Shown: positions 7,600-28,816 of the stretch, in pieces
How the letters are laid out: every line of letters begins with the position of its first letter
Position numbering within the stretch: position 1 is the first letter of the stretch
Assembly (NCBI GenBank): GCA_008933675.1
Contig: WBUO01000001.1
Span: forward strand, 19,239-83,238
Length of the DNA: 64,000 nt
Direction: 5' to 3'
DNA from: Dechloromonas sp.
Lineage (GTDB): Bacteria > Pseudomonadota > Gammaproteobacteria > Burkholderiales > Rhodocyclaceae
Position numbers and translations under genes: made by a program
The notes under the pieces: model-generated
The model's input: the letters and a program-made list of their open reading frames with translations, nothing else
Databases searched by the model: none
Told to the model about the DNA's origin: nothing

Positions 7600-7653
7600 C
7601 GCCGCCGCCGGAGCGGCATAGAATGGACGCATCACTTCCGCGGGAGCGTCGTC

Positions 7654-7932: not shown

Positions 7933-7939
7933 GCTTCCG

Positions 7940-8380: not shown

Positions 8381-8554
8381 GCACATCTCCCAATGACGAA
8401 CGAGGAACCAGCGACGGGAAAGGCCAGGGCTGTCGCCGGACAGGTTTACAGGGGCAGCAGGGCAAGCGACGTAACGATATGCAGCGTTTCCGGGGGTGTC
8501 GTAAAGACTGGCAAAACGGCACAAAGTTCCGCCATGCGGACGATGGCAAGCCCC

Positions 8555-9412: not shown

Positions 9413-9751
9413 GAATGGATATCTGGATTTGCCGACAGCAACCGGCCAAAGGAGATCGATACAGTATCAAAGCTGCCATCCTGACCGGAACAGACAATTT
9501 TGTTCCGCCATCGGGATGTGCCCGCCCATCCCCTTCGGCAAGCAAATAAATCTCGAAAATTGCGCAAAAATCACAAATTCAAGATCACAATATCCGGTGA
9601 TTTTCTGGCCAGGACTCTCGCGCCGGTCATGATGAATGGTTACACTTCCCGCCCGGGATGCTGAGCGGAAGGCGCCGCCTGATGCCAACATGGCCGGTTG
9701 AGGCGAAGACGCTCCGGCAAGTTGCCGGAACGGGCAAAGAGGACAGGGCAA

Positions 9752-12004
9752 ATGGCACTCGAATACTGGACTGATGAACAAATCCTGGAGCAGCTTGATT
9801 CCGGTTACCACTGGTCCGGCCCCACGATCACCTACGCCTTCCCCGTTTCGGCAAACGACATCTACAGCTCCGACTGGGAAACCGAGGGCTTCCGTCCCCT
9901 GACCTCGACCCAGCAGCAATACGCCAAGCTGGCACTCGCCACCTGGGACGACGTGATGGCCGCCACGCTGGTGCAGACGACCAGCGGCGACTCCGATGTC
10001 GAGTTCGGTTTCACCTACATCGACATCGATTACGCCCATGCCTACTACCCGGATGCCGGCAGCGTCTGGTTCAGCAGCGATTACAGCGATCTGGCGTCAC
10101 CGCAGGTAGGCCGTCACAGTTTCATGACCTATGTCCACGAGATCGGCCATGCCCTGGGGCTCGATCACATGGGCGACTATGACGGTGACTATTACTGGAC
10201 GCCATCCAGCTATCAGGACAGCACCGTCTGGTCGATCATGTCCTATTTCGGCCCCAACTGGGGCTATGGCTACGAGAACGGTGAAGGACTGGTCGCCTGG
10301 GCTGACTGGGTGGGGGCCGACGGCAGGCTGTATACGCCGCAGACACCGATGGTCAACGACATCATGGCGATCCAGTCCATCTACGGCGCCGACACCACAA
10401 CCCGCACCGGCGACACGGTATACGGCTTCTCCAGCAACATCACCGGGCAACTGGCGAGCATCTACAACTTCACGCTGAACCGCAGCCCGATCCTCACCAT
10501 TTACGATTCCGGCGGCATCGACACCCTGAACCTCGGCGGCTGGAGCACGGCCAGCACCATCGATCTGGCGGCAGGCGCCTATTCGTCATGCAACAGCATG
10601 ACCTACAACATCGCCATCGCCTACGGCTGCGACATCGAGAATGCCGTCGGCGGCAGCGGCAACGACCATATCCTTGGCAACCAGCTGGCCAACCGTCTGG
10701 ACGGCGGGGCCGGCAACGACCAGTTGTACGGCCTCGACGGCAACGACATCCTCGACGGCAAGGCCGGCGCCGACACGTTGATCGGCGGTGACGGCGACGA
10801 CATCTATTACATCGACAACCTGCTCGACGTCCTGACCGAGACCAGCGGCACCGACGAAGTACGCAGTACGGTCAGCCATACGCTCGGCACCGACTTCGAG
10901 CATCTGACCCTGCTCGGCAGTGCTGCCCTCAACGCCACCGGCAATGCCGCTGCCAACATCCTGACCGGCAACGACGGCGCCAACGTCCTCGACGGCCTGG
11001 CCGGCGCCGACACCCTGAGCGGCGGCAAGGGCAACGACACCTACGTCATCGACGACGCCGGCGACGTCGTCGTCGAGAACCTGACCGCCCTCCAGGGCGG
11101 TGGCGTCGATCTGGTCCGCAGCGCGATCAGCTTCGACCTCGGCGACAGCAGCAACGGCAACGAGCGCAGCCAGATCGAGAACCTGACCCTCACCGGCAGC
11201 GCCGATCTCACGGCCACCGGCAATGCCCTGGCCAATCTGCTGACCGGCAATGCCGGCGCCAACATCCTCGACGGCGGCCTCGGCAGCGATACCCTCAAGG
11301 GGGCCGCCGGCAACGATACCTACCGCGTCGATCTCGTCCGCAACGGCACGACGGCCACCGTCAAGCTCGAGGATGTCGTCTCCGAAGCCGCCGGCGAAGG
11401 CAGCGACACCGTCGAACTGCGCCTGCGCGACGGTCTCGACTACAGCTTCGCCACCGCCGTCAGCACGCTGATCCTCGACGCCCATGTCGAAGCCCTCGAT
11501 GCCGACGCCACCGGCACGCTGAAACTCAACCTGACCGGCAACGCCCTGGGCAACACCCTGACCGGCAATGCTGCCGCCAATACGCTCACGGGCCTGGCCG
11601 GCGACGACCATTTGCTGGGTGGTGACGGCAACGATCTGCTCATTGGCGGACTCGGACTCGACCAACTCGATGGCGGCGACGGCAGCGACGTCTTCCGCTT
11701 CGACAGCATCCTCAATGCCGTGACCAATGTGGACGAGATCTTCGACTTCACGTCACTGACCGATATCCTGCAACTGGAAAACGGCATCTTCACCCGCCTG
11801 GCCGCCGGCAACCTGGACGCCGGGAATTTCTTCGCCGGCGGGGCCACCGTCAGCGCCCAGGATGCCAACGACTTCATTCTGTACGACAGCGACTCCGGTC
11901 GGCTCTACTACGATGCCGACGCGAACGGCAGCAGCGCTGCCATCCACTTCGCCACCCTGCTCGGACAGCCGCCGCTCACCCATACCGACTTCCAGGTGAC
12001 ATGA
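9752..12004 (+). CDS. Serralysin-like M10 zinc metalloprotease with extended RTX Ca-binding repeats
   Basis: HEIGHALGLDH zinc motif, SIMSYF Met-turn, M10_C region and many GGxGNDxLx repeats. No N-terminal signal peptide, consistent with type I secretion. Confidence 0.9.
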   Translation: MALEYWTDEQILEQLDSGYHWSGPTITYAFPVSANDIYSSDWETEGFRPLTSTQQQYAKLALATWDDVMAATLVQTTSGDSDVEFGFTYIDIDYAHAYYPDAGSVWFSSDYSDLASPQVGRHSFMTYVHEIGHALGLDHMGDYDGDYYWTPSSYQDSTVWSIMSYFGPNWGYGYENGEGLVAWADWVGADGRLYTPQTPMVNDIMAIQSIYGADTTTRTGDTVYGFSSNITGQLASIYNFTLNRSPILTIYDSGGIDTLNLGGWSTASTIDLAAGAYSSCNSMTYNIAIAYGCDIENAVGGSGNDHILGNQLANRLDGGAGNDQLYGLDGNDILDGKAGADTLIGGDGDDIYYIDNLLDVLTETSGTDEVRSTVSHTLGTDFEHLTLLGSAALNATGNAAANILTGNDGANVLDGLAGADTLSGGKGNDTYVIDDAGDVVVENLTALQGGGVDLVRSAISFDLGDSSNGNERSQIENLTLTGSADLTATGNALANLLTGNAGANILDGGLGSDTLKGAAGNDTYRVDLVRNGTTATVKLEDVVSEAAGEGSDTVELRLRDGLDYSFATAVSTLILDAHVEALDADATGTLKLNLTGNALGNTLTGNAAANTLTGLAGDDHLLGGDGNDLLIGGLGLDQLDGGDGSDVFRFDSILNAVTNVDEIFDFTSLTDILQLENGIFTRLAAGNLDAGNFFAGGATVSAQDANDFILYDSDSGRLYYDADANGSSAAIHFATLLGQPPLTHTDFQVT

Positions 12005-12212
12005 ATCGCACCGCGGGAAGGCGCCAACGCCGCCCCCCCGCTCGCGCAGCAGTGACTTCCCGATGGAAAACGCAGGGCCCTGCGTTTGAGGTGCAACTCT
12101 CGATGAGGATGGCCGGTGGCGCAGCCGGTTCGGGCAACGGAAATTCAGCCTTGGCCGGCAAAAGCTGCTACGAGATTAGCCTGTCCATGAGAGAGACATT
12201 CCGCGTGGCAAA

Positions 12213-12250
12213 AGCAAAAACGGCAACCTGTGAGGGTTGCCGTTTTTGCT
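12213..12250. terminator. Bidirectional intrinsic terminator between the protease gene and tRNA-Phe
   Basis: 16-bp stem agcaaaaacggcaacc / ggttgccgtttttgct with A and T tracts. Confidence 0.8.
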
Positions 12251-12260
12251 TGGAATGCTT

Positions 12261-12336
12261 TGGTGGCCAATCGCGGAATCGAACCACGGACACGCGGATT
12301 TTCAATCCGCTGCTCTACCAACTGAGCTAATTGGCC
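12261..12336 (-). tRNA. tRNA-Phe (GAA)
   Basis: Reverse complement GGCCAATTAGCTCAGTTGGTAGAGC...TTGAAAA...GGTTCGATTCC...CCA is a 76-nt cloverleaf. Confidence 0.97.
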
Positions 12337-12415
12337 AAAAGGAGGGCGCATTATAGCGAGGTCACCGCCCCCGCGCAACAGGATTGGGCGTCAACAGGGG
12401 ATTCGCGGCACTCGC

Positions 12416-13900
12416 TCAGGGGCCGAGTGGCGGAGACTGGCGATAGAGTTCGGAAAAATCGTCGGGCGGAGGTAACGGCGGTGCCGGCGGACGCCAGGGC
12501 GCGAAGAGCACGCGGGCGATGGCGCCGCGCCCCTTGGGGTTGGGCTTGAGGCTGGCACGGGCGTCGTGCTGGTCGGCAATTTCCTGGACGATGGCGAGAC
12601 CTAGGCCGCTGCCTTCGGTATTCGCATCGTCGACCCGGTAGAAGCGCTCGAAGACCATTTCCGACTGCTCCTCGCTGATGCCGATTCCGTCGTCCTCGAC
12701 TTCCAGGGCAACGCTGCGCGCTGTGACGACGATCCGGCAGGTGACATGCCCGCCGGCCGGCGTGTAGCGGAGGGCATTGTCCACCAGGTTCTTGGCCAGC
12801 TCGCGCAACAGGAAGGCATTGCCGACGATCATCGCCTGGCCTTCCGCCTCGTAGCCGAGATCGATGCCCTTCTCGATGGCGACCATGACCCAGTCCTCGA
12901 CAACCTCGCGGATGAGAACGGCGAGATCGAGCGGTTCGTGTCGCTGTTGCGCCGGCTCGCCGCCGCCCTCGGTACGGGCCAGCGTGAGCAGCTGGTTGAC
13001 CAGGCGGCCGGCACGATCGACGCCGGTGGCGATCTGTTGCAAGGCGTGACGCAGGGATTCCGGATCAGTCTCGCGCATGGCGAACTGGGCCTGGGTCTTC
13101 AGTCCGGTCAGCGGCGTGCGCATCTGGTGTGCGGCATCGGCGACGAAGCGCTGCTGGGCGCCGACATTGCGTTTCATGCGCTCGAGCATTTCGTTGAAGG
13201 CCTCGACCAGCGGCTCCAGCTCTTCCGGCACCCGACGCGTGGCGATCGGCGAAAGGTCGGCCGGATCGCGGGTTTCGATGGTCTGGCGCAGGCGGGTCAG
13301 TGGCCGCAAGCCGCGCGACAGGCCGAACCAGACGAGCATGACGGCGAGCGGGATGATGATGAACTGCGGCAGGATGACGCTGGCAACGATCTTGTTGGCC
13401 AGCTGGTTGCGTTTCTCGGTCGTTTCGGCGACTTCGACGAGAATCCAGTTCTTGCTCGATTCGGTCGTCTCGGCCAGGAAGGTATAAGCGAAGCGCAGAT
13501 CCTGGCCATTGAACTCGGCATCGCGCAGGTAGATTTCGCCGGGCAGCAGGTCGCTCTGGGCGGAGAAATCGGGAATCGGCAGATCGCGATCACCGGCCAG
13601 GAACTTGCCGTTGCGCGTGACCACATGGAAATAGACGGAGTCGGTTTCATCGGCCCGCAGGAAGGCACGAGCCGAGGCCGGCAGGTTGAGTATGGGTTTG
13701 CCGTCGACCAGCTTGACCTGGCGGGCAATGGCGGCAACGTGTTCGCGCAGGGCCTGGTCGTAGGGAAAGTTGGCGACGCTGTTGGCGAAGTAGTGGGTGA
13801 AGGCGATCGACAGCGGCCAGACGAACAGCAGCGGCGCCAGCATCCAGTCGAGAATCTCGCCAAATAGCGAGCGCTCGGTATCGGCAGGAGCAGCAGGCAA
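12416..13900 (-). CDS. Sensor histidine kinase, TctE/QseC-like
   Basis: TM-periplasmic-TM-HAMP, DAAHQMRTP H-box, and N, G1 and G2 boxes. TTG start just after the response regulator stop is inferred. Confidence 0.88.
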   Translation of the reverse strand: MPAAPADTERSLFGEILDWMLAPLLFVWPLSIAFTHYFANSVANFPYDQALREHVAAIARQVKLVDGKPILNLPASARAFLRADETDSVYFHVVTRNGKFLAGDRDLPIPDFSAQSDLLPGEIYLRDAEFNGQDLRFAYTFLAETTESSKNWILVEVAETTEKRNQLANKIVASVILPQFIIIPLAVMLVWFGLSRGLRPLTRLRQTIETRDPADLSPIATRRVPEELEPLVEAFNEMLERMKRNVGAQQRFVADAAHQMRTPLTGLKTQAQFAMRETDPESLRHALQQIATGVDRAGRLVNQLLTLARTEGGGEPAQQRHEPLDLAVLIREVVEDWVMVAIEKGIDLGYEAEGQAMIVGNAFLLRELAKNLVDNALRYTPAGGHVTCRIVVTARSVALEVEDDGIGISEEQSEMVFERFYRVDDANTEGSGLGLAIVQEIADQHDARASLKPNPKGRGAIARVLFAPWRPPAPPLPPPDDFSELYRQSPPLGP

Positions 13901-13901
13901 C

Positions 13902-14573
13902 TCAGTCGCCTTGCGGACGTTCGAGGCAGTAGCCGAGGCCCCGCACGGTGGCGATCTTGACGCCGCCAGCCTCCAGCTTCTTGCGCAGGCGATGCACGTA
14001 AACCTCGATGGCATTGTGGCTGACCTCTTCGCCCCAGCCGCACAGGTGATCGACCAGCTGGTCCTTGCTGACCAGGCGCCCCATGCGGGTCAGCAGGACT
14101 TCCAGCAGGCCGATCTCGCGGGCCGACAGGTCGAGCGTCTGCCCCTGGATCTGTGCGACGCGGCCGACCTGGTCATAGCTCAACTGGCCGCACTGGATGG
14201 TCGGCGTCGTCCCCGCCGAGCGCCGGGTCAGGGCGCGGACGCGGGCTTCCAGCTCGGCCAGCTCGAAAGGCTTGACCATGTAGTCATCGGCCCCGAGATC
14301 GAGCCCCTTGACCCGGTCACCGGTACCGTCGAGGGCAGTGAGGATGAGGACCGGCACCTTGGAACCGCGGGCGCGCAGGCGCTTGAGTACGTCGAGGCCG
14401 GGCAGCTTGGGCAGACCGAGATCGAGAATCAGCAGGTCATAGCTGACGGTGAGCAGGGCGGCATCCGCCTCCAGGCCATTGGGTGCCCAGTCGACGGCAT
14501 ACCCCCCCTGGCGTAACGAACGGGTCAGACCATCGGCGATGATGGCGTCGTCTTCAGCAATCAGAATGCGCAT
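13902..14573 (-). CDS. OmpR-family response regulator, TctD/QseB-like
   Basis: MRILIAEDD, LDLGLP, GADDYMVKPF and the winged-helix IATVRGLGY motif. Confidence 0.92.
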   Translation of the reverse strand: MRILIAEDDAIIADGLTRSLRQGGYAVDWAPNGLEADAALLTVSYDLLILDLGLPKLPGLDVLKRLRARGSKVPVLILTALDGTGDRVKGLDLGADDYMVKPFELAELEARVRALTRRSAGTTPTIQCGQLSYDQVGRVAQIQGQTLDLSAREIGLLEVLLTRMGRLVSKDQLVDHLCGWGEEVSHNAIEVYVHRLRKKLEAGGVKIATVRGLGYCLERPQGD

Positions 14574-14799
14574 ATGTCGATAACCCCGAGCGTCGTAAGA
14601 CTTTTGTAAGCCTGCAACATTAATCTGTGCGGGCTGTTCTCCTTTTATGGTCTTTGGAGTGCGTGGCGCAAGCCGCGACTCAGGGGGTGGTCCGATCCTG
14701 CACTGGGCGACCCCCTACCGTTTTTTTCCCCCGAAACCTGACAAGTCTAGCAAATAAAGTCCGCTGCAAATCTTGCAGCGCACAAGCGCGCCCGTGCGC

Positions 14800-19077: not shown

Positions 19078-19104
19078 TTAGCACTCGTCGTCGGTGAGTG
19101 CTAA
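19078..19104. promoter_or_regulatory. CIRCE operator (HrcA site)
   Basis: Perfect TTAGCACTC-N9-GAGTGCTAA upstream of groS. Confidence 0.95.
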
Positions 19105-19106
19105 TA

Positions 19107-19133
19107 ATAGGGGCCGACCTGATGGATTTCAAG
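19107..19133 (-). promoter_or_regulatory. sigma32 heat-shock promoter of groESL
   Basis: Minus strand CTTGAA-N14-CCCCTAT, immediately upstream of CIRCE. Confidence 0.8.
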
Positions 19134-19149
19134 GGCCGTCGGTCAACTT

Positions 19150-19237
19150 TGTTCCGTGGTAGGAGGGAAATTTGATTTCGGGATTCTGGCAACTAGAAAT
19201 CGGGATTCTGGCAACTAGAAATTGGGAACGGTGCAAT
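19150..19237 (+). repeat. Left-hand terminal repeat array of 22-bp units (putative transposase-binding sites)
   Basis: cgggattctggcaactagaaat is exactly duplicated (19179-19200, 19201-19222), with degenerate units in the same 22-bp phase starting at the terminal TG (19150). Confidence 0.8.
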
Positions 19238-19368
19238 TCTCCCGGCCGTAGCACGGCGAGTGATCGCCGGTGTAGGGCGCCGTAAGATTTCGACAATAAA
19301 AAAAATTATTTGTCGGCAGTCGTTCGGCGGATGTCTTCGCTTCGCCGTCGGCGCATCATTTTCATCGG

Positions 19369-21120
19369 TTACGGCATGATCATGGTGCGGCCGCTATCGA
19401 TGTCCATCCTCACGCGTGGATTGGTGTTCGATGCGATCACGGCGGCCGGTTCGCCCTTCACGACGACCTCGATCCGCCCATCGAGCTCGGCACGGCTCTT
19501 CTCACGGTAGGCGGCAAACTCGGCTTCCTTATTGAATCCAACGCCGTGAAGGATTTTGCGGAGCGTCTCAGAAACCCCGGATAGCGCATTGACGCGGTTG
19601 CCGTCATTCGATGTGTCGCCCGCCCATTGCGAAACGCCGTACATCAATGCCAACGGGGCTGCGGCCATCCCAATATTTCCGGCCATCCGGAATCCGCCTT
19701 TGGCGGTCGGAATCTTGGCGGCCGGTTTTCCTCCTGGCAAACCAGGAATATCCGTGCCTCCGATGGAGGCGGGCCAGTTGACCACGAAGACAGGGGTTAC
19801 TCCGGCGGCGGCTTCGAGAGCCTTTCCCTGGGCAACGCCAGCAGCGGTTCCGCCGAACTTGTTCATCAGCCCGGAAATGGCTTTCCCGCCGTAACGAGAA
19901 GCGCCGAAGATGCCCAAGGCCCCTAAAGCGCCGCCAGCCAACATGTCTTTCCCGTCCAGTTCCAGCCCGCCGTTTTCCTTCTTCTCGAGACCCCAGTTCA
20001 CAAGGTTGGTAAACGCGTCGTTGATCGGTTGGGCAAACTCGTCGGCGGCAAGGCCGAGAACGCCGCGCAGTCTTTCAGCTGCAACTGCGGCATTGTTGAT
20101 TGACTCCTGAATGTCCCGGCCAGTGCTACCTGCCGCAGTGCTGATAGCTTTCTCGACCGGGCCAAACTTGTCGAGGAGTCCCGTGAGCAAGGCGCGCTGT
20201 CCCTCGATGGTGTCTTTGTCGGCACCGCCGAACGCCATGTCGAGGGCTTTCATCTGCTGGGCGTCCGTCTTGAACCGCTTGAACTTTTCCTGCATCTCGC
20301 GCAGCACCTGAATCGGGTCGCGGTTCATGCCGTTCTCGTCAGTGAATTTAACGCCTGACGCCTTTTCTGCCTTGTCCCGATAATCCTTGATGGTGAACAC
20401 GCGCAGAGTGGATTCCGCCAACGTCGACAGCCGTTCAGGGTTGGGCTGAACAAGGGACAACGTCTCAATGAATGCCAGCGTCTGATCCAGATTCATCCCG
20501 GCGGCCTTGGCCGACCCGCCTACCGTAGCGAACAGGGCGGGCAGGTTGCTCAGTTCTGCAAAACCTTGCTCACCGGCAACCTTCATCTTGTCGAGAACAA
20601 GGCGAGCCTGTTCTATGTCTCGCAGGTCGATTTTGAAATGCTCTTTGACAACACCCAAGGCTTTCGCGAGATCGGCCGCATTGGTCTTTGCCGTTGCCAT
20701 CACTTCGGCAATTGGTCCGATGGTCGCCCTTGCTTCTGTAAGGCTGGCGCCGCCCGCGACCAGGGCGTCAACCCCTTGCCGAAGGGTATCGGTGGACTGA
20801 CCGGTTTGGCGCTGCAGGTCGTAGAGTTCCTTGCGCAAGCCGCCAATTGCCTCGGACGTGGCGCCGGTGGTGTTCTTGAGGTATTGCAGCTCCTTATCCA
20901 GCGCTGCTGACTTCACGATGGTAGCCACGGCGCCGACGGTCAGGCCAAGAGAGGCGAACTGCCCTTGCACGCTGCCTATCATGCCCTTCAAAGCGTCGAA
21001 CTCCTGGCGGGCGCCTCTACCGAAGCGCCGAACGCCGCCTTCGGCTTGGGTCAGGCCAGCCACGAAGCGCGATGCATCTGCATGCAGCCTTACCGCCAGT
21101 GACATGTCTCGGGTGCTCAT
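19369..21120 (-). CDS. Phage tail tape-measure protein
   Basis: 583 aa, Ala/Gly-rich and helical. Starts MSTRDMSLAVRLHADASRFVAGL; core KMKVAGEQGFAELSNL resembles the TP901-type tape-measure core. Confidence 0.8.
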   Translation of the reverse strand: MSTRDMSLAVRLHADASRFVAGLTQAEGGVRRFGRGARQEFDALKGMIGSVQGQFASLGLTVGAVATIVKSAALDKELQYLKNTTGATSEAIGGLRKELYDLQRQTGQSTDTLRQGVDALVAGGASLTEARATIGPIAEVMATAKTNAADLAKALGVVKEHFKIDLRDIEQARLVLDKMKVAGEQGFAELSNLPALFATVGGSAKAAGMNLDQTLAFIETLSLVQPNPERLSTLAESTLRVFTIKDYRDKAEKASGVKFTDENGMNRDPIQVLREMQEKFKRFKTDAQQMKALDMAFGGADKDTIEGQRALLTGLLDKFGPVEKAISTAAGSTGRDIQESINNAAVAAERLRGVLGLAADEFAQPINDAFTNLVNWGLEKKENGGLELDGKDMLAGGALGALGIFGASRYGGKAISGLMNKFGGTAAGVAQGKALEAAAGVTPVFVVNWPASIGGTDIPGLPGGKPAAKIPTAKGGFRMAGNIGMAAAPLALMYGVSQWAGDTSNDGNRVNALSGVSETLRKILHGVGFNKEAEFAAYREKSRAELDGRIEVVVKGEPAAVIASNTNPRVRMDIDSGRTMIMP

Positions 21121-21223
21121 TTTGGCCTCTCAGCGTGAATGGGTTACAGCCATGGGTCGAGGGCCATTGAGACGCTATGGCTGCTCTTGCGTCTCTGGCG
21201 TTACTCAGAGGAGGATTCCCAAG

Positions 21224-21778
21224 CTATTCGGTGATGCCGGCGCTCGTCAGCTGGCTGGCAAGTTCGTCGCGCTTGCTGATCAGCTCGTCCATTTGCTGAT
21301 CGATTTCGGCAATGCGCTTGCGGCGCTCATCAATCGGCATGCCGCCTTCCTGCCAGGCGTGTGCAGTGTCCATGGCATCCATGAAGCGTTCGGCAATCAA
21401 GTCACCGAAATACCAATAGAAGGCACCCGGTGAGATATTGAAGCCGTCGAAGCATTCATCGCCATTCATGTACGGAAATTGCTGAGACTGGCCGGCGTTG
21501 TGGACGCGCTCCAGGGCACCAAAGCTCAGATTGAGATTGGCTCCGCTGGTTTTTCCGCCCCGGGCGAAACGACGCAATTGATTCAGGAACGGGCCACAGC
21601 GCCGGGAGATATCAGCCTTCACATAGGCGGCGTAATCCGCCCGGCTGACGGGCGCATCGATCAACGCCTGGCGTTCATGATTCAGCTGGTTGATTTGCTC
21701 ATCCAGTGCCTGGATTTCGGTCTTGACCGATTCAGCAACCTTTTTTAGCTTGCCCAGAATGTTGGTCAGTTCAGACAT
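21224..21778 (-). CDS. Hypothetical 184-aa protein with N- and C-terminal coiled coils
   Basis: Heptad segments EIQALDEQINQLNHERQALI and RIAEIDQQMDELISKRDELASQL flank an aromatic central region; overlaps the upstream 60-aa ORF. Confidence 0.75.
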   Translation of the reverse strand: MSELTNILGKLKKVAESVKTEIQALDEQINQLNHERQALIDAPVSRADYAAYVKADISRRCGPFLNQLRRFARGGKTSGANLNLSFGALERVHNAGQSQQFPYMNGDECFDGFNISPGAFYWYFGDLIAERFMDAMDTAHAWQEGGMPIDERRKRIAEIDQQMDELISKRDELASQLTSAGITE

Positions 21779-21953
21779 GTTGCTGCTCCTGGTCGATTTG
21801 ACTGGCCGCCGCTTTGGAAAATGCTTTCGAAAACGGCTCGATTACGCGGACTTCCAAGAGCGGCGCGGCTTCCGCGCTGGAGAGTTCGATTACATCCCCG
21901 GTGTTGTAGGTCTGATGGTTGAAGTCAATACGGCTCAGTGCTCGATATTTCAT
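21771..21953 (-). CDS. Small 60-aa phage-type protein (possible head-associated domain)
   Basis: MKYRALSRIDFNHQTYNTGDVIELSSAEAAPLLEVRVIE resembles small domains found in phage head modules; good RBS (ggagcaacgttatg). Confidence 0.55.
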   Translation of the reverse strand: MKYRALSRIDFNHQTYNTGDVIELSSAEAAPLLEVRVIEPFSKAFSKAAASQIDQEQQHV

Positions 21954-21970
21954 AACGTTGCTCCTTCGGA

Positions 21971-22726
21971 TTATTTGCGGTGTTGCGTAACGTGATTGAC
22001 GGCTTGGAGGCTGGTGACAAAAGTACCGGCGGCAGCCATCGACTCCTGGTAGGCCAGTGCCGCAGTGGCAATGTCTTGGGCGGATGCCGGCTTGCTGCTC
22101 TGGGCCCGGGAAATGCTGCTCAACTGCTGTTGCTGGCTGACGTGGCTGACGGCCTGGACGCTGGTGACAAAAGTACCGGCGGCAGCCATCGACTCCTGAT
22201 AGGCCAGCGCCGCAGTGGCAATTTCTTGAGCCGTTGCCGGTTGGCCGTGCAGACGACGGGAGGCGGCGGCCAGGTCGGTCAAGCCGTCAAGGGCGGGGTT
22301 GTTCGTCAAGGCAATGTTGATGATGTCCAGAACCCGCCCGGCATCGTCATGGTGGAAGGTAGGGGAAATGAACCGATATTCCTTGGCGCGGATCATTGCC
22401 GATGCCCGTTCCGTCCATCGTGCGTCGGTCACATAGAGTCCGTCACCCTCCCGCCATTCCAAACGCTTGAACCACCCGGCCGCCGGATTCGGCTGGCCGT
22501 TGCTGGCCGTGTTGAGCGTCTGGTGCTCGTAGTCGATGACGTAGTCACCGAACCGGGCGGCGGCCAGCTTGACGATAGACAGCGCCTCAGGGCGGTTGAG
22601 TTGCCAGCCTTGAAGCCCGTGGGGGCGGCCATCGGATGCCGAGAAGCGGCCAGCCGGCATGATTCGGAAGGCGGCTAAGGGGGCGGTAAGCGGTTGGGTA
22701 GAGCAATTGGCGAGTAGTGTTCTCAT
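21971..22726 (-). CDS. Mu gpI-like prohead protease with a duplicated C-terminal motif
   Basis: IMPAGRF...DGRP, VIDYEHQT, PAAGW, WTERA...I..KEYRFISPTF and ALTNNPAL are Mu-like protease I motifs. Confidence 0.85.
   Translation of the reverse strand: MRTLLANCSTQPLTAPLAAFRIMPAGRFSASDGRPHGLQGWQLNRPEALSIVKLAAARFGDYVIDYEHQTLNTASNGQPNPAAGWFKRLEWREGDGLYVTDARWTERASAMIRAKEYRFISPTFHHDDAGRVLDIINIALTNNPALDGLTDLAAASRRLHGQPATAQEIATAALAYQESMAAAGTFVTSVQAVSHVSQQQQLSSISRAQSSKPASAQDIATAALAYQESMAAAGTFVTSLQAVNHVTQHRK
21990..22228 (-). repeat. Two ~89-bp direct repeats at 150-bp spacing inside the protease gene
   Basis: 21990-22078 and 22140-22228 encode Q(E/D)IATAALAYQESMAAAGTFVTS(V/L)QAV(S/N)HV twice. Confidence 0.9.
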
Positions 22727-22735
22727 GACGCCTCG

Positions 22736-23068
22736 TTACGGTGTTTTCTTCGGAGCTTCGGCGTGGCGCATGTCGCGCGCCCGCCAAAGAATTTGCCGAA
22801 TTCGCATGGTCGATAGGCCGTGTTTCTGTGCCAGCTCGGCATGGTTTCGCCCGTTGAACTCAGCGATGATTTGCTGATCCCGGTTGCGGGTCTTGCCATT
22901 GGCGCCGGAGGGGATGTAAAGCGCTTGCCCCTTCCAGTGCTGCCGCATCTTCTCGGCAATCGAGATGGCTTTCTGACTGGCGTCAGGTGCGCCAATGCCT
23001 TCCTTGACGAACTCTTGCTCCAATTGAATGGCAAGGTCTTCAAGCAGGCCGTCTGCGCTCAAGTCCAT
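22736..23068 (-). CDS. Mor/C-family transcription activator
   Basis: HWKGQALYIP...RNRDQQIIAEFNGRNHAELAQKHGLSTMRIRQIL is the Mor family signature. Confidence 0.9.
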   Translation of the reverse strand: MDLSADGLLEDLAIQLEQEFVKEGIGAPDASQKAISIAEKMRQHWKGQALYIPSGANGKTRNRDQQIIAEFNGRNHAELAQKHGLSTMRIRQILWRARDMRHAEAPKKTP

Positions 23069-23108
23069 TTTTCCCCTTCCGTTGTATTCGGTTGGGGCTA
23101 TCGTGCCG

Positions 23109-23142
23109 CTCGGTAAAGGGCTTTACCGAGTAAAGGGCTTTA
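23109..23142. promoter_or_regulatory. Palindromic/tandem operator candidate upstream of mor
   Basis: ctcggtaaag-gg-ctttaccgag dyad (23109-23130); the core taaagggcttta occurs at 23114 and again at 23131. Confidence 0.5.
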
Positions 23143-23483
23143 GTAAGTTGATGGGGGCTGCCGTGGCATCGTTTGCGGCGCAGGCGGCAAGCGATCTACC
23201 TTTTACCCATCTCGGGGATTGCCGAGCACCGCGAGTGCCAGCCGCCTGCCCCGAATTTCGATAAACTGCTCCTGCAGCTCGCCGGAGTGTCAGGAAAAGC
23301 GCCGTCTGACATCATGGGGCTTCGGGCCTGATGGTCATGCGGGAGTGCCTGGTTCGACCAGGATGGTGTCCCGCCCGGCGAGTCTGCATCTTTCCCCTCA
23401 TCTGGTAACGCCCGAGAACCGCGTTAATGGTGCGTTAATTTCGATTTTCGCGGGTCGGTTGGTATCTCGGGTCCAACTGGAAA

Positions 23484-23518
23484 GAAAAAACCGCCAGAGA
23501 GCGATTCTGGCGGTTTTT
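23484..23518. terminator. Intrinsic terminator ending the early operon of the element
   Basis: aaaaaaccgccagag...ttctggcggttttt hairpin with A/T tracts on both sides. Confidence 0.75.
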
Positions 23519-23547
23519 GTAGCACGCGATCGTCGAGAAAACTCTTC

Positions 23548-23724
23548 TCATGTAAATCGCGGATCGTTTTGGGGTTGCATGCTTGCCTGTTGCCGCTGCA
23601 ATCGGCTTGATAGCGGCTTTATAAGCGTACTGCCAATCCGAAATGAAAATGCACCGCTCAGGACTGTTGCCAGTTCGGCTATAGGCTGGTGAATTTGGTG
23701 GTCATTTGGTCTTGTTGTTTGCAT
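23548..23724 (-). CDS. Small 58-aa hypothetical ORF, last gene of the early operon (below the ORF-track cutoff)
   Basis: Manual translation MQTTRPNDHQIHQPIAELATVLSGAFSFRIGSTLIKPLSSRLQRQQASMQPQNDPRFT*. Lies 25 bp after gemA, has an AAGG RBS, and ends just before the terminator. Confidence 0.4.
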   Translation of the reverse strand: MQTTRPNDHQIHQPIAELATVLSGAFSFRIGSTLIKPLSSRLQRQQASMQPQNDPRFT

Positions 23725-23749
23725 GGTCGATTGCCTTTTGTGTGATTGA

Positions 23750-24172
23750 TCAGTTTTTCTTCTGTTTCGCGTGCAGCCATCCCTCTAATCCGTTGATCAG
23801 GCTGGCCATGCCGTGCCGGTCGAGAAAACGGGGGCTGTGTACTTTGCATACGCGCTTGCAGAAGGTGATCAAGGCTGGATCGTGGGCCGCGCCGGACATA
23901 CCCAGCTTCTTGGAGAGGTCGAGCGCGTAGCGCCATTGGTGCTGTGTTGGTTGCTCTGGATTGCCGGAGTCGGGCAGCGGTGCGGCAGGATTGGGGGCGA
24001 GAGCACCGAGGTCGCGTAACAGGTCAACGAGCATGGACAACTGCGCGTCACTGCAGGCCTTGCTGCTGCGCTGGCCGGTGTGTTTCTGCATCCAGGCGCG
24101 GCGAGTGTCCTCATCCCAGCCCAGGCGCTTAGTACCGGCGTGCAGCATCTTGTTGAGGGCGACGCGGTTCAT
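23750..24172 (-). CDS. GemA/gp16-like (DUF1018) Mu-type regulatory protein
   Basis: LHAGTKRLGWDEDTRRAWMQKHTGQRSSKACSDAQLSMLVDLL...LINGLEGW; ATGA overlap with the ATPase. Confidence 0.8.
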   Translation of the reverse strand: MNRVALNKMLHAGTKRLGWDEDTRRAWMQKHTGQRSSKACSDAQLSMLVDLLRDLGALAPNPAAPLPDSGNPEQPTQHQWRYALDLSKKLGMSGAAHDPALITFCKRVCKVHSPRFLDRHGMASLINGLEGWLHAKQKKN

Positions 24173-25185
24173 GGCTTGCCCCGCTTGTTGGCTTTGCCGG
24201 ACAAATCGGGCTTGAGCTGCTCGGCCAGCTTTTGGAGAAGCCCGGCATCCACCTGAACGCCATACATCTTTTCGGCAATGCGGAAGACGTCAGCCAGGGC
24301 GCGTAGGCCGCCGTTTTGTTCGGGGCGGCAAGCGATGCTGCAGGCGACTTCGGTCAGCTTCTTGCGCTCAGCCGGCGTCATGCCATTGCCGGCGCCGCGC
24401 CAGGCCAGCCAGGCGTCGACGTCTTCTTCGGTGGTGGCGGCGAAATCGTAGCGATTGGCGCGGCTGGCCAGGCGGGCAAATTTGGTGCTCTTGCCCCAGA
24501 CCATGCCGCTTAAATCGGGGTTGCCTTGCATCACGATGGAGATGTCCACGGCGTCGTGGATGCTGGCCACAACGTTCAACGCTTCGCCTAGGAGCTGGCA
24601 TTCATCCAGGATCAATTGGTCTCCGGGGCGCAGGGCCGATGTGACGCCGCCCATGAGATTGCCGTTTCGATAGGCGTGGCTCGGGGCGTTGAGGTGCAGG
24701 GCGATTTTTGCCAGGGCGGCGGCCGGCTTGGCGTCGCCTTCGTCGAACTGGATGCGCACGGCGCCCGGCTGGCTGTGAGTGCGGGGATGGCTGGCACAGT
24801 AAAAGCGTGCCGCCTCGCTTTTACCAATGCCCCAGGCGCCAGTAATGGCCAGGAAAAAGCCACCTTGCTGGGCTTGGGTGTAAAGGTTTTGCAGGTGGGT
24901 GAAGGTCGGCGTGATGGCGTAGCCGGCATCGTCGGCGCCGCCTTTTTGTTCGCTTTCGAGCCATGCGGCTAATGCCTGAATGGCTTCGGTGGTGTCTTCG
25001 TCCTGAAGGTTGCCGTATTGGCGAATCGGCTGCCCTGCAATGATGCGGTTTAACGCCGCTTCGTCAACGCCGGAGAGCCAGGCGATTTTGGTTCGGGTGA
25101 AGCCCGATGCCAGACGGGATTCAACTTGCTGCAAGATGGCTTTCTGTGGGTCGGTAAACACGTCTTCCCGATGTTTGTATAGCAT
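24169..25185 (-). CDS. MuB-like AAA+ transposition ATPase
   Basis: N-terminal HTH, Walker A GAWGIGKS, Walker B LILDECQ and an R-finger region (RLASRA); directly follows the transposase. Confidence 0.88.
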   Translation of the reverse strand: MLYKHREDVFTDPQKAILQQVESRLASGFTRTKIAWLSGVDEAALNRIIAGQPIRQYGNLQDEDTTEAIQALAAWLESEQKGGADDAGYAITPTFTHLQNLYTQAQQGGFFLAITGAWGIGKSEAARFYCASHPRTHSQPGAVRIQFDEGDAKPAAALAKIALHLNAPSHAYRNGNLMGGVTSALRPGDQLILDECQLLGEALNVVASIHDAVDISIVMQGNPDLSGMVWGKSTKFARLASRANRYDFAATTEEDVDAWLAWRGAGNGMTPAERKKLTEVACSIACRPEQNGGLRALADVFRIAEKMYGVQVDAGLLQKLAEQLKPDLSGKANKRGKP

Positions 25186-25196
25186 GGCGCTCTTCC

Positions 25197-27425
25197 TTAT
25201 GACTTGGCGGTTATGAGGGCTTTTAATGGGTCAAAGGCCGGGGATTCCCGGCTTAGCTTTTGTGCTTCCAGGGCTGGGGGCGCAAATCTCAGCGGGTCAA
25301 AGTCGATGGCGGTCGGCTTTGGCCCGCTTTCATTGATGGGCTGCATGTCGATGATGTGGCCCTCGGTGGGGTGCCGTAATTGCCCTGGTAGCAGCTTGGC
25401 CGGGGCTGGGAGTTGCATGGCGGCTAGCGCGTCGCCGATGGCTTCGCCTTCGGCGGTGGTGATGAGTGGACCATCCGGCAGCGTGGGCGCCGGAGGAAGT
25501 TCGGCATTAACGCGGACGGCTTCGGTCAGCAGATTGAGGGTTTTGGTTTGCCCCTTGAGTTGCTGTACATGGGCAAGTTTCAGGCCGTTAAGGCGCGATT
25601 GTTCCTTGGCGCCTTGGCCATCTTCCTGTGCGTAGGCGTCCGCTTGGGGAATTGCATGCAGTTGCCCGCTATCGTCCAAATAGAACAAGGCTTCACGCGC
25701 CCATTTGGCATAGCGGATTTCGACGGTTTGGCCGATCAACGGGACGATGATGTCGGCGCGGTACCAGGTCTTAATTCCGCGTTCCTCAACGACGAGGCCG
25801 CCCGTTTTGACCTTGATTTTGCGGATCTCGGAGAAGGCAAAAATCAGGTCGTGCCGGGAGACTCGGACAGCTCGCCAACCTTCTTCAATGGCCTTGCGTC
25901 GCTTGTCATTCGGGCTGCTGCCATCCTTTTGGGCGGTGTTGCGGTAGAGGTCGAGACATGTCCTGATATCGTGGGCAAAGTCGTCATCGGCGCCACGGTA
26001 GGCCTTTGGTTCCTGGCCAACCAGTTGTGTCCGCTTGTTCATGCGGTCACCGCCAACCCAACCAGGCATCAGTGAGAAAAACTGATATTCGACGATGGCA
26101 AAAACGTGCTCAATCTGTTTGGCTGGGGCGTTGTAAGGGCGAGCCCTCGATATCGCGGCGAACTGCTCACCATCGATCAATTCGGCTGCTTCACCTTTGC
26201 CCATGATGCTGACGTGAAAGGCCTGAAAGGCACTGACCAGGCCGGCCAGCGCCTGAAACCCTTTGATCATGGCATCCCATTTGTATTCCTTGCCGTTGTC
26301 CAGGCGTAGCTGTTTCGGAAGTCCCCAGGCTTGCACCATGTCAACGAAGGATGCGGCGATGTCGGCCTGTGTGATGCCTTTTCCGGGCGGGAGAATGACC
26401 ACGGTAACGAACAGGTCATAGGTGGCCACGTCCAGCCAGGAAATCAGGCGTGCATGGACCGTCCGGCCGTCGATCTCTCTGGCCACGTCCATCGGGTGGA
26501 CGTCGCCAATGACAATGTCGCTGGGCTTGTAACCATTACGATGCCGCTGAACGCGTGGCATCTGGGTGTCGAAAAAGCGCTTAGCGTTCTTTTCCTTGAG
26601 TGCGACCAAGGCGAATTCACGGAATTTTTCGACAAAGGGGCGGCCGGGTTCGCAACTCTTCAGCGTGGCGCCATCCCAGCCCGCAAGTCGGCATTGCTCC
26701 AGGAGTTCAACGCTGGCGAGCTGGTTGACGCGCTTCCAGCCGGGCGCACCTTCTTTCCACAGTGTTTTTACGTGGGTTTCCATGTGGGCGGCGATTTCAG
26801 CCTTTTTGTCGTTGGCCAACGGACATGCCTTGTCCCACGCCCGCGAAATCAGCACGCGGGGCGCACTTTCCTTACGGCGCTTTCGTTGCAAGGCCTGTTC
26901 GCCCTGTTCTTCGACGATTTTCAGCCAGGCTTCGAGGGTGCTAACGGCCGGCCTCCACGGCTTGCCGTTGGGCTTGGTGGTTTCCTTGGCAGCCGTGGCT
27001 TTCAAGGCCTCCCCTCGTTCCTTGCTGAACTTGGGGAATTGCAGCGCGTCGGCCAGCAACTCGAGCCGCCAGCGCCATAGCGCGTAGTCATCGGAAATTC
27101 TTGCGCTGTAGCGTCCTGGCGATGGGAGCGTTACTGATTCAGCTTCCTGAAGGGCGTGGCATGCCTGGTAACGCTTGTGCCAAATATCGCGCAAATCGGC
27201 GGGCAGACTAGGGCCGTAGGCTTGCAATGCGTTGCCTTCATAGCGTGCCATGAGGTCAACGCCTCGCCACTGCGCTCCCGATATGGCGGCAGTTAATGTC
27301 CGCCTCGCTTGACGTTCAGACAGGCCGGACAGCGCAGCGAATACCGATGTTGGTATCCATACGGATTCCCCGTTTGTGGCCGGTGGAATTTGGGGCAGGT
27401 TTCTTCTTGCTGCAGCGGATGACAC
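25197..27425 (-). CDS. MuA-like DDE transposase
   Basis: 742 aa; candidate triad GDVHPMD / RLDNGKEY / AKQIEHVF; GTG start abutting the ner-like gene. Confidence 0.88.
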   Translation of the reverse strand: MSSAAARRNLPQIPPATNGESVWIPTSVFAALSGLSERQARRTLTAAISGAQWRGVDLMARYEGNALQAYGPSLPADLRDIWHKRYQACHALQEAESVTLPSPGRYSARISDDYALWRWRLELLADALQFPKFSKERGEALKATAAKETTKPNGKPWRPAVSTLEAWLKIVEEQGEQALQRKRRKESAPRVLISRAWDKACPLANDKKAEIAAHMETHVKTLWKEGAPGWKRVNQLASVELLEQCRLAGWDGATLKSCEPGRPFVEKFREFALVALKEKNAKRFFDTQMPRVQRHRNGYKPSDIVIGDVHPMDVAREIDGRTVHARLISWLDVATYDLFVTVVILPPGKGITQADIAASFVDMVQAWGLPKQLRLDNGKEYKWDAMIKGFQALAGLVSAFQAFHVSIMGKGEAAELIDGEQFAAISRARPYNAPAKQIEHVFAIVEYQFFSLMPGWVGGDRMNKRTQLVGQEPKAYRGADDDFAHDIRTCLDLYRNTAQKDGSSPNDKRRKAIEEGWRAVRVSRHDLIFAFSEIRKIKVKTGGLVVEERGIKTWYRADIIVPLIGQTVEIRYAKWAREALFYLDDSGQLHAIPQADAYAQEDGQGAKEQSRLNGLKLAHVQQLKGQTKTLNLLTEAVRVNAELPPAPTLPDGPLITTAEGEAIGDALAAMQLPAPAKLLPGQLRHPTEGHIIDMQPINESGPKPTAIDFDPLRFAPPALEAQKLSRESPAFDPLKALITAKS

Positions 27426-27426
27426 A

Positions 27427-27621
27427 TCACACCTCGACGATATCGCCGTTCTTTAGTCCAAGGAGGACGGCAATTCTGTGAGCCTTCCCGCGATAGCACT
27501 TGGCCTCGCCGTTAAGGACGCGGTGCACGGCCAGTCTCGTGAAACCGTTTGAGCGAGCCCAGCCTGTTATGGTGATTCCCTTCTGACGGAATTCAGTCTT
27601 TACCTGTTCGGCGGTCTTCAT
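27427..27621 (-). CDS. Ner/Cro-like DNA-binding protein (BcepMu gp16-like)
   Basis: MKTAEQVKTEFRQKGITITGWARSNGF...VLNG..KCYRGKAHRIAVLLGLK; first early gene, divergent from the repressor. Confidence 0.85.
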   Translation of the reverse strand: MKTAEQVKTEFRQKGITITGWARSNGFTRLAVHRVLNGEAKCYRGKAHRIAVLLGLKNGDIVEV

Positions 27622-27666
27622 TTACGCTACCTCTCAACAATCAGATTTGTATCACAAGGGATTCAA

Positions 27667-28167
27667 TTGAATATCACTTTGCCGGGCTTTGCAAGCGGAG
27701 ATGACTCCTTTCCAGTCGCGCTTGGTCGCCGGATACGGGAGGTTAGAGAGGCAAAACGCTTGAGCCAGCGCGAATTTGGCGCATTGGGCGGTGTGCTGAA
27801 ACTTGCCCAGATGAACTATGAAAGAGGTGTTCGTGTGCCTTCAGCCGAATACCTATATTCGCTGAGTCTTCATGGCATCGATACCCACTACCTGCTGACA
27901 GGCAAAAGGAGTGGCGATGCAGTGGCGAATCTCCCCGGTATTGATGGGCAGATGCTGGCAGCGAGCGTGGACACCGTCTGGCGGTTTTCCAAGGATGCGA
28001 TCCCCGCATTAAGCAGCGAGGACTTTGCGCGTTGCGTTAGCTTGTTGTACTCGGCTCTTTCGCTCGTCGGACGTAAGGTGACCCGCAAGACAGCGGACGA
28101 ACTTGGTGTGTTGCTGGTTACTACCTTTATTGCAGGCTTGGATCGGAAGCCGGATGGCCGCAAGTGA
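27667..28167 (+). CDS. XRE-family repressor (Mu c-like position), no peptidase domain
   Basis: LGRRIREVREAKRLSQREFGALGGV...NYERGVRVPSAEYL...GIDTHYLLTG. The start codon is uncertain. Confidence 0.85.
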   Translation: MNITLPGFASGDDSFPVALGRRIREVREAKRLSQREFGALGGVLKLAQMNYERGVRVPSAEYLYSLSLHGIDTHYLLTGKRSGDAVANLPGIDGQMLAASVDTVWRFSKDAIPALSSEDFARCVSLLYSALSLVGRKVTRKTADELGVLLVTTFIAGLDRKPDGRK

Positions 28168-28431
28168 TGGCCGCTTATGTCCGCAAGCGCTTTCTAATAT
28201 GCCCCTGTTTTTTCCTCTAACCCGCGCCACAACGTGGTTTCGAGCGATGTCCGCAAACTTCGCAATCCCCCGTGGGCTCGTGGTGTGGCTTGCTGGTGCC
28301 CTTGTTCGTTTTGAATCGCGTTTGGGCTAGAAACTGTGCGGTATTCCGAGCTTTTTGCTTGAACGTGTACCAGAAATTTGCAAAGTGCCGAGGTGGGGCC
28401 ACCAAGCTCCAACCCGCTTAAATACTGGGCA

Positions 28432-28493
28432 CGGTTCCAGTTTAATTGTTGCCAGCGTTCCAGATTTCAAACACCACCCCTAGTGGCGGAGCA
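28432..28493 (-). repeat. Right-hand terminal inverted repeat of the element
   Basis: Reverse complement TGCTCCG...TTGAAATCTGGAACGCTGGCAAC...GGAACCGTGC mirrors the left end TGTTCCG...TTGATTTCGGGATTCTGGCAAC...GGAACGGTGC. Confidence 0.7.
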
Positions 28494-28816
28494 GATCGCC
28501 ACCTGGTGGCAGTTGTCCAGTTCGGCCACCCACAGCCAGCCACCAACCGGAAAGCCAGCGCAGGGAATTCCGGAAGAATTTTTTACCACACCGGGGCACA
28601 CCGGAAAAATCGTAACCAAAACAAAACATTAAAACCGGAAACGATCCGCAACATATACAAATGGCATCATTTCGCCAAATGGCGCCGAAACACCAGAAAA
28701 AGAATCATCCCGTTTCATGCATTCCGCCCATAGAATAGCCCCCGCCTGCTTATGGTCATAGGTTTCTCAGCACGCTGTCCGTCGTTAGTCCCCCAACTTC
28801 GTTTCGCCAGCCAAGA

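Follow-up and report, generated by a model that had tools for sequence, protein, structure and literature searches.

Why would a transposable element that has no capsid gene carry a prohead protease? The question is raised by a Mu-like element of 9,323 bp (positions 19160-28482) in a Dechloromonas sp. genome (Rhodocyclaceae; GenBank assembly GCA_008933675.1), which lies within a stretch of 64,000 nucleotides of contig WBUO01000001.1 (19,239 to 83,238 of the forward strand) that was analysed as a whole and is referred to here as the window. The element had been predicted to lack a capsid gene of its own, and Pfam and phrog scans of it found none. Its protease gene encodes a protein of 251 amino acids (aa) in which a protease domain is followed by two tandem copies of a short motif. 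With some reservation, we favour the explanation that this protein is a satellite's prohead protease, sent into the procapsids of a helper phage by a bivalent mimic of the helper's scaffold anchor, as judged from sequence comparison and from analogy with known satellites. A short protease with tandem anchors would thus probably be a tool to hijack helper phage capsids.

A short prohead protease with a duplicated tail

The protease open reading frame (ORF) starts with an ATG behind a GAGG ribosome-binding site, 10 nt past the stop codon of mor, and is followed by closely packed ORFs of 60 and 184 aa. Its product matches the Pfam family of Mu-like prophage I proteins (PF10123, Mu-like_Pro; E = 3.4e-57, 194.9 bits with the cut-off at 25.2, covering positions 2-209 of the 330 in the profile) as well as the head maturation proteases of phrog_328 (E = 2e-60). 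An AlphaFold2 (AF2) model built with 25 homologues (mean predicted local distance difference test score, pLDDT, of 79) folds residues 1-141 into a beta-rich domain, and the best Foldseek match of this model in the Protein Data Bank (PDB) is the T4 gp21 prohead protease (5jbl; prob 1.0, E = 1.5e-3). A profile search of solved structures returned nothing relevant. His68 and Ser121 are present without exception in two alignments that include full-length phage proteins, which fits the His/Ser catalytic pair of the HK97 gp4/T4 gp21 protease class. Because the two residues are invariant and the predicted fold is gp21-like, the window protease is probably catalytically active.

With its 251 aa the protein falls short of the full-length phage members of the family, which measure 330-390 aa, and alignment with these relatives locates the difference in the scaffold (Z) coiled coil of ~150-190 aa, which is absent from the window protein. 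The original prediction of a shortened scaffold was therefore wrong, as the coiled coil is wholly gone and only the protease and the anchors are left. The portal, gpF and capsid genes that neighbour PF10123 genes in phages are likewise lacking here, the window protease being flanked by mor and by small and coiled-coil genes.

The repeat in the tail was recovered at several levels. In the DNA, two direct copies of 115 nt (21981-22095 and 22131-22245) are 86% identical at a spacing of 150 bp, and Tandem Repeats Finder reported a period of 150, 1.8 copies and a score of 404; in the protein, residues 167-199 and 217-249 share the pattern Q(E/D)IATAALAYQESMAAAGTFVTS(V/L)QAV(S/N)HV. Since the DNA repeat, the Tandem Repeats Finder score and the protein repeat agree, the repeat is real and not due to chance. 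A gpI-like protease followed by two tandem copies of ~30 aa is what had been predicted, and this architecture is borne out by the ORF itself, by PF10123 and phrog_328, and by the repeat searches. The predicted period of 150 bp also stands, while the 89 bp given as the length of the DNA repeats turned out to be the best-conserved core of the 115-nt repeat. Between the 30-aa repeat cores there are three conservative replacements and four silent changes, in keeping with the expectation that the substitutions would be mostly silent or conservative. In the AF2 model the helices span residues 166-182 and 189-205 in repeat 1 and residues 216-232 and 239-250 in repeat 2, the second unit having a pLDDT of 86-94.

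Origin of the tail motif

Full-length Mu-like phage I proteins consist of a protease, a coiled-coil scaffold of ~150-190 aa and a C-terminal helix-loop-helix of ~30 aa. The tail repeat aligns with the extreme C-terminus of six such proteins (P0076, P0089, P0102, P0106, P0110 and P0111), which end in ...IAxAAxKYQxEQxxAGxxVxxxxAVxHV plus about 4 residues. Repeat 2 of the window protein stops 2 residues short of the C-terminus, and the motif of the full-length phage proteins stops ~4 residues short of it. The proposed check, a profile comparison of the repeat with gpI C-termini, bore out the homology between the repeat and the very end of full-length Mu-like I proteins. P0111 and P0102 are encoded in the complete Mu-like siphophages L092 and L093, whose gene set comprises terminase, Portal_Mu, Mu_F, I, a 124-aa protein, a lambda-E-like capsid (PF03864), a DUF7210 mini-gene, gp36, tube and tape measure. 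When the tail alone was used in a phmmer search of 1.8 billion representatives, 10 matches were obtained, one of which (P0128) is spurious.

The type of C-terminal anchor was compared with the type of capsid in ~65 loci with a full-length I protein, the anchor being typed by regular expression (regex) or by reading the tail. The AYQ..AVxHV anchor was accompanied by an E-like capsid in 4/4 loci and never by a gpT capsid. Among the long loci with a gpT capsid, 58 of 60 carried an LSxxExAVCxxLG anchor (LSxxExAVCxxLGLxxExF) according to regex or tail reading, and the remaining two were assigned to an xFG type by regex and judged to be false positives. Because anchor type tracks capsid type, the C-terminal hairpin may be read as a coat-specific docking element of I proteins, and this co-variation is the best evidence available for such a role.

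Short proteases and their genomic setting

The homologue search revealed a large population of short proteins (170-290 aa) that have one tail or, more commonly, two. Among homologues with a usable tail, and with a repeat called at a z of 5 or more against shuffles, the C-terminal 32 residues were found repeated upstream in 38 of the 91 short homologues compared with 2 of the 19 long ones. The duplicated motif varies by lineage (AYQ, LTxxELAVCxxLG, DHAKLQxxFGxDYA, ExxNxxLRxxFGPNA and others). Of the AYQ type, 19 proteins with two copies were compared: identity between the copies of one protein ranges from 43 to 100%, with the core residues kept, and the copies are positionally orthologous in 91 pairs as opposed to 42 in which they are not. 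As the copies have diverged and yet remain positionally orthologous with their core retained, these data point to an old tail duplication that is under selection and has been homogenised in some lines, including that of the window. Proteins consisting of two anchors alone, without a protease, were also found (P0126 and P0127). Since the duplication recurs across motif types and such stand-alone double anchors occur, two anchors appear to be the functional unit.

In ~25 short-protease loci there is no capsid, portal or terminase gene within 10 kb, and most of these loci are rep-ner-A-B-GemA-Mor elements of 8-12 kb. They come from Rhodocyclales, Thiobacillus, Gallionella, Burkholderiales, Azomonas, Marinobacterium and metagenomes. 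Among the carriers of related elements are Craterilacuibacter sinensis B2N2-7, Azomonas agilis DSM 375, Marinobacterium litorale DSM 23545 and the organism of Thiobacillus genome CP059257. The short form was found in none of ~130 loci with full-length I; the idea that the same short duplicated tail might be common in complete phages, raised together with the original prediction, is thus not supported, the tail having been found only in elements without a capsid gene.

Two loci have a different gene content. A reduced Mu-like element on a 5.9-Mb contig (L095, 2942-14463) encodes a stand-alone 108-aa double-anchor protein and no protease, in addition to Portal_Mu, A, MuB, GemA, Mor, TAC_7, a 663-aa PhageMin_Tail protein and a GPD-like protein. 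The other, a compact Mu-like element (L027, 4088-12262), combines rep-ner-A-B-GemA-Mor with a full-length I, a gpT capsid and a decoration protein; portal, terminase and tail genes are missing and host genes follow directly. L027 is a capsid-forming variant of the same element type.

A coiled-coil partner

AF2 models the 184-aa protein encoded near the short protease, at a pLDDT of 83, as a hairpin of long antiparallel coiled-coil helices that bears a small head. Its family comprises proteins of 180-220 aa, and a hidden Markov model (HMM) of this family identified a member directly up- or downstream of the short protease in ~20 compact loci and had no match in the full-phage loci. Short proteases nearly always have such a neighbour. 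In a class-wide search the family was present in 4 of 400 genomes. This protein is a better candidate than the short protease for a size-determining scaffold.

The pair of protease and coiled-coil protein also occurs on a P4-like backbone, in IMG/VR contig L100. Because the cassette is common to two unrelated helper-dependent backbones, a role in hijacking is strongly argued. This second backbone, the conservation throughout the family and the recent mobility together support the satellite setting that had been predicted.

The island on L100 (IMGVR_UViG_3300002520_000018, 7172-14768) contains genes for a tyrosine integrase, the coiled-coil protein, a short double-anchor protease, AlpA, a primase (Zn-ribbon/Toprim) and DUF927. 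It is located directly behind the terL-portal-F-tailS-I genes of a Mu-like phage, and this gene I stops at residue 195, exactly at the protease/scaffold boundary. The contig may represent a satellite integrated in the scaffold gene of its helper, or a chimeric assembly.

A candidate helper in the same assembly

The matching anchor was found together with an E-like capsid in the complete phages L092/L093 and on a contig of the element's own assembly, C197 (11.6 kb). The window's genome contains no second PF10123 gene and no Mu gpT homologue. C197 encodes, in this order, a Mu-F-like protein, a 364-aa head protease-scaffold (phrog_976, E = 2e-93), a cement-like protein, an E-like coat protein, a 63-aa protein, gp36, a tail-completion protein, a tube protein and a tape measure longer than 1115 aa. 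The coat protein (309 aa) is 49% identical to the coats of L092/L093, and the protease-scaffold ends in ...VAVAAQKYQFAEAQKGHSVDIATAVRHVKGA. All six-frame ORFs of the genome were searched with a phage-type profile for which eight full-length phage proteins, all from other genomes, supplied the C-termini. The window protein (9e-19, two domains) and the C197 protease-scaffold (3e-5) were recovered, and the next match had an E value of 0.22. A strict motif regex that matched 2 of 21,445 ORFs had been set after the fact and was not used as statistics. With the queries used, no portal or terminase for the C197 cluster was found elsewhere in the assembly.

The small proteins of the two gene clusters were compared as well. 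BLASTP gave no alignment between the 60-aa protein of the window and the 63-aa protein of C197, and homology between them is possible in view of weak shared phrog and Pfam matches. A homologue of the 60-aa protein follows the short protease in L083, L084 and L180-184, and a DUF7210 gene is found right after the capsid gene in the helper-type phage L093. In the genome of L041, a related element, no E-like capsid was found; the anchor of L041 is of the gpT type.

Proposed mechanism and alternatives

We propose that the C-terminal hairpin docks protease-scaffold proteins on the inner face of the coat shell, and that two hairpins per chain would restore the bivalency that is otherwise given by oligomerisation of the scaffold coiled coil. 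The satellite protein could then compete with the helper's protease-scaffold for docking sites on the lambda-E-like coat protein. Because the protease of Mu-like phages is part of the scaffold protein, displacing the helper scaffold would mean that the maturation protease is lost too. A protease with its own anchors would solve this loss, as the satellite would bring it to procapsids devoid of the helper's scaffold-protease fusion. The adjacent 184-aa coiled-coil protein, probably an alternative scaffold, would act jointly with it. Capsids would thereby be either remodelled to fit the 9.3-kb element or made useless to the helper; by volume scaling, a T=3 or T=4 shell made of a T=7 coat is estimated to hold ~11-16 kb, a capacity that would suit Mu-type headful packaging of the 9.3-kb element. 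From sequence and analogy we infer that the anchor binds the coat, that the satellite protein competes with the helper scaffold, that the element is packaged in helper particles and that capsid size or helper yield is affected.

Several points weigh against this explanation. In the literature searched, neither an experiment nor a structure shows binding between coat protein and the hairpin that ends Mu-like I proteins, and the structural paper on JBD30 leaves the hairpin unresolved. The coiled-coil family showed no relation to the full-length I scaffold in hhalign (prob 0.9%), and Foldseek searches with the 184-aa protein against PDB and BFVD returned generic coiled coils only and no size-determining protein. 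As for the candidate helper, the short-type repeat profile reached only E = 5.5 on C197, the pairwise BLASTP comparison gave an E value of ~0.1, and the GC content of C197 is 68.6% compared with 63% for the genome. The link between the two tails became significant with the phage-type profile only. Because the assembly consists of 531 contigs with an estimated contamination of 4.9%, C197 may not stem from the same cell as the element.

The mimicry of an anchor and the lack of structural genes would fit equally well with an element that is never packaged and whose double-anchor protease is purely a dominant-negative poison of Mu-like head assembly, protecting the host or the element by saturating scaffold docking sites or by premature cleavage; that stand-alone double anchors without a protease occur is also in line with this. 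We nevertheless consider interference on its own unlikely. Complete Mu ends, transposase, Mor and often a TMP (tape-measure protein)-like gene are kept and mobility is recent, the L027 variant carries its own capsid gene, and elements with a P4-like backbone, on which the module is found as well, are known to be packaged. Interference and transfer of the satellite itself go together in known satellites, so that interference is more a subset of the hijacking role proposed above than an alternative to it. The chances seem similarly low that the hairpins dock on a partner other than the coat, such as the portal, the coiled-coil protein or the TMP-like protein, so that the protease would process the element's own proteins. 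The pairing of the short protease with a coiled-coil protein and the recurrence of TMP-like genes in such elements would agree with a partner of this kind, and the binding of hairpin to coat is argued from co-variation and analogy; however, complete phages show co-variation of anchor and capsid and do not have the coiled-coil partner, and the minimal elements L097/L098 do without a tape-measure gene.

It is, by comparison, very improbable that the locus is a decaying Mu-like prophage, with a gene I shortened by deletions and a 150-bp duplication that arose by accident and serves no function. Most phage genes are indeed missing from the element, and the 86% DNA identity of the window copies implies that local duplication or homogenisation was fairly recent. 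The same architecture is, however, seen in dozens of lineages with different motif types, and copies are retained down to 43% identity. The ORFs are intact, close-set and equipped with ribosome-binding sites, both ends and the target repeat are intact, the partner gene is unique to compact elements, and an identical element occupies two sites while the element is missing from same-genus genomes. Prophage decay is thus essentially excluded.

The element and its ends

The element has a GC content of 58% compared with 64% in its flanks. Its ten ORFs (rep, ner, A, B, GemA, Mor, the short protease, the 60-aa protein, the 184-aa coiled-coil protein and the TMP-like protein) are all intact and tightly spaced, each behind a ribosome-binding site (Table 1). 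The ends are inverted repeats that start with TAGG(A/G)G and contain repeated sites with CTGGCAAC. The right end was set by analogy with the ends of relatives, as determined from the paired insertion sites L097/L098 and L181/L182. Ends at 19150 and 28493 without a target duplication, as given by the first reading of the sequence, were replaced by ends at 19160 and 28482, flanked by GTGG. Joined to each other, the flanks align, junction included, with the uninterrupted site in G130, a genome of the same genus, and the element is missing from two same-genus genomes.

Table 1. Features of the element and of the adjacent groES promoter, in window positions.
Feature	Position	Strand	Basis
Short prohead protease, 251 aa: Mu gpI-type protease domain, then two C-terminal anchor repeats	21971..22726	-	PF10123, phrog_328, AF2 model, fold match
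Protease domain, residues 1 to about 155, His68 and Ser121 invariant	22262..22726	-	Alignments and model
Anchor repeat 1, helix-loop-helix, residues 167-199	22130..22228	-	Repeat searches, AF2 model, profile of phage I C-termini
Anchor repeat 2, helix-loop-helix, residues 217-249	21980..22078	-	Repeat searches, alignment with phage C-termini, AF2 model
Coiled-coil hairpin protein, 184 aa, conserved partner of short protease	21224..21778	-	Family HMM, AF2
60-aa protein, weakly DUF7210-like	21771..21953	-	PF23843 E 0.008
Mor-family late activator, directly upstream of protease, same direction	22736..23068	-	PF08765 E 7e-23
Early operon	23750..27621	-	phrog_925, phrog_310, phrog_296, PF06252
GemA	23750..24172	-	
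MuB-like ATPase	24169..25185	-	
Transposase A	25197..27425	-	
ner-like	27427..27621	-	
Repressor (helix-turn-helix), divergent from ner	27667..28167	+	phrog_8 E 2.5e-11
Tape-measure-like protein, 583 aa, last gene	19369..21120	-	PF10145 E 4e-22, TMP phrogs
Right (groES-proximal) end: terminal TAGGAGGG, then two copies of GGGATTCTGGCAACTAGAAAT (putative transposase sites)	19160..19237		
Left end: inverted copy of terminal sequence, reverse complement TAGGGGTGGTGTTTGAAATCTGGAACGCTGGCAAC	28429..28482		
GTGG direct repeat, probable target duplication	19156..19159 and 28483-28486		Flank sequence
Host groES promoter, intact: -35 CTTGAAA 19127-19133 (+ strand numbering), CIRCE operator 19078-19104	19078..19133	-	

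Because one identical element was found at two different chromosomal sites in two samples (L097 and L098), these elements are mobile, to judge by the sequences of both sites. A relative of the element, L181, was assembled circularly permuted on a contig of 9,532 bp (JGI 3300045395) whose ends overlap by ~24 nt. At 8560-8640 of this contig, GCGG separates a right end (...GTCCCA) from the left end (TAGGGGG...) that comes next. As the right end runs into the left end, the L181 sample holds a head-to-tail junction, from either a circle or a tandem copy.

The TMP-like gene is intact, yet no tube, chaperone or baseplate genes are found alongside it. Homologues of it were found in the compact elements L032, L086 and L009, and similar lone TMP-like genes are present in L032, L086, L083 and L095.

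In the window the element abuts a chemotaxis-receptor gene, which in G130 (L090 1400-5960) is separated from groES by ~4.5 kb that include a response regulator, a 329-aa ORF and a 719-aa ORF. As the window (28483-28816) is without these genes, G130 and the window differ by a separate deletion or insertion beside the element.

Insertion beside groES

The host has a single groES-groEL operon, and the right end of the element is located 26 nt upstream of the -35 box of that operon. Four related yet clearly different elements occupy the same place in the same orientation, in a Rhodocyclales metagenome-assembled genome (L041), in Thiobacillus (L083), in Accumulibacter (L084) and on a metagenome contig (L098). 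The groES-side coordinates are 19078-19160 in the window, 15500-15780 in L041, 14780-14990 in L083, 11790-11990 in L084 and 10070-10220 in L098. In the three of the five cases in which the ends are fixed, the distance from the element end to the -35 box is 26 nt (window), 30 nt (L098) and about 34 nt (L084). The promoter and the CIRCE operator are intact in all five, and the opposite flank is different each time. The element found beside groES in L098 also occurs at an unrelated site (L097). Vertical inheritance of an element beside groES was ruled out by its absence in same-genus genomes and by the differing other flank between genera. These observations suggest that insertion is directed to the region of the groESL promoter or is strongly selected there. 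Such recurrence is unexpected for a Mu-type transposon and is unexplained.

A more speculative and rather doubtful reading would join these strands. The short protease and the coiled-coil protein would be a hitherto undescribed, portable cassette for capsid hijacking that is carried on two unrelated backbones, namely Mu-type mini-elements, themselves an undescribed class of satellites, and integrase/primase islands of the P4 type. With this cassette the helper's protease-scaffold fusion would be driven out of procapsids, two separate proteins would take over its two functions, and small heads for ~9 kb would be built; in addition, one Mu-type lineage would have come to prefer insertion at 26-34 bp from the groESL promoter, on its upstream side, the first case of Mu-like transposition that is directed to a site.

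Significance and comparison with known systems

If the proposed role of the protease is correct, a hairpin of ~30 aa whose type predicts the capsid type would provide a sequence handle on the docking between Mu-like protease-scaffold and coat. The window protein would then be a second, independently evolved satellite copy of a helper scaffold anchor, with bivalency within one chain through tandem duplication as its new feature, and with a protease that is carried along because the helper protease is fused to the displaced scaffold. A short PF10123 protein with a repeated tail and a coiled-coil neighbour would also serve as a search signature for large numbers of apparently undescribed satellites of transposable phages. 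Such elements would be relevant to gene transfer, because Mu-type headful packaging takes adjacent host DNA.

Engineered mini-Mu elements are small and have Mu ends, like the element described here, and depend on a helper for their particles, as this element probably would; they differ in being engineered and in carrying no morphogenesis genes. Capsid-forming phage-inducible chromosomal islands (cf-PICIs) likewise carry part of a head module, to be compared with L027 and its I, gpT and decoration protein, but they use integrases and encode their own capsid. A literature search found no description of natural Mu-type transposable satellites, the carriers of the module, which appear to be undescribed.

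Mu gpI/gpZ has a homologous protease domain with the same His/Ser, and the repeat is homologous to the C-termini of the full-length subgroup; the window protein differs from gpI/gpZ in that it lacks the scaffold of ~150-190 aa, has its C-terminal motif doubled and has no portal, gpF or capsid neighbours. P4 Sid/Psu and TcaP of the phage-inducible chromosomal island-like elements (PLE) are helical, size-determining satellite proteins that redirect the helper coat (PMC7552001, PMC10945586), and the 184-aa protein is a candidate for a comparable role. No sequence or fold similarity was detected between the 184-aa protein and these proteins. In contrast to the window module, Sid and TcaP act outside the shell, do not mimic a scaffold C-terminus and have no paired protease.

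The closest parallel is CpmB of the Staphylococcus aureus pathogenicity island SaPI1, which shares the C-terminal motif of the scaffold of its helper 80alpha and binds the same coat site (PMC5644958). The CpmB dimer straddles two capsomers, which leads to tighter curvature and to small T=4 capsids (PMC5644958). Mimicry of an anchor by a satellite is thus already known. Like CpmB, the window protein has no long scaffold body, and as a probable satellite protein with the C-terminal motif of a helper scaffold it would be bivalent and compete for the same site. CpmB is, however, a non-catalytic dimer of 72 aa with one anchor per chain, whereas the window protein has two tandem anchors in one chain plus a protease and would be a covalent equivalent of the two legs of the CpmB dimer, fused to a protease. 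The anchors also differ, that of CpmB being a helix-and-hook with RIIK and that of the window protein a helix-loop-helix of ~30 aa, as do the carriers, an integrase-based PICI in the one case and a Mu-type transposon in Betaproteobacteria in the other. What appears to be new is the combination of a tandem single-chain anchor with a protease, its recurrence with different anchor types and its dedicated coiled-coil partner.

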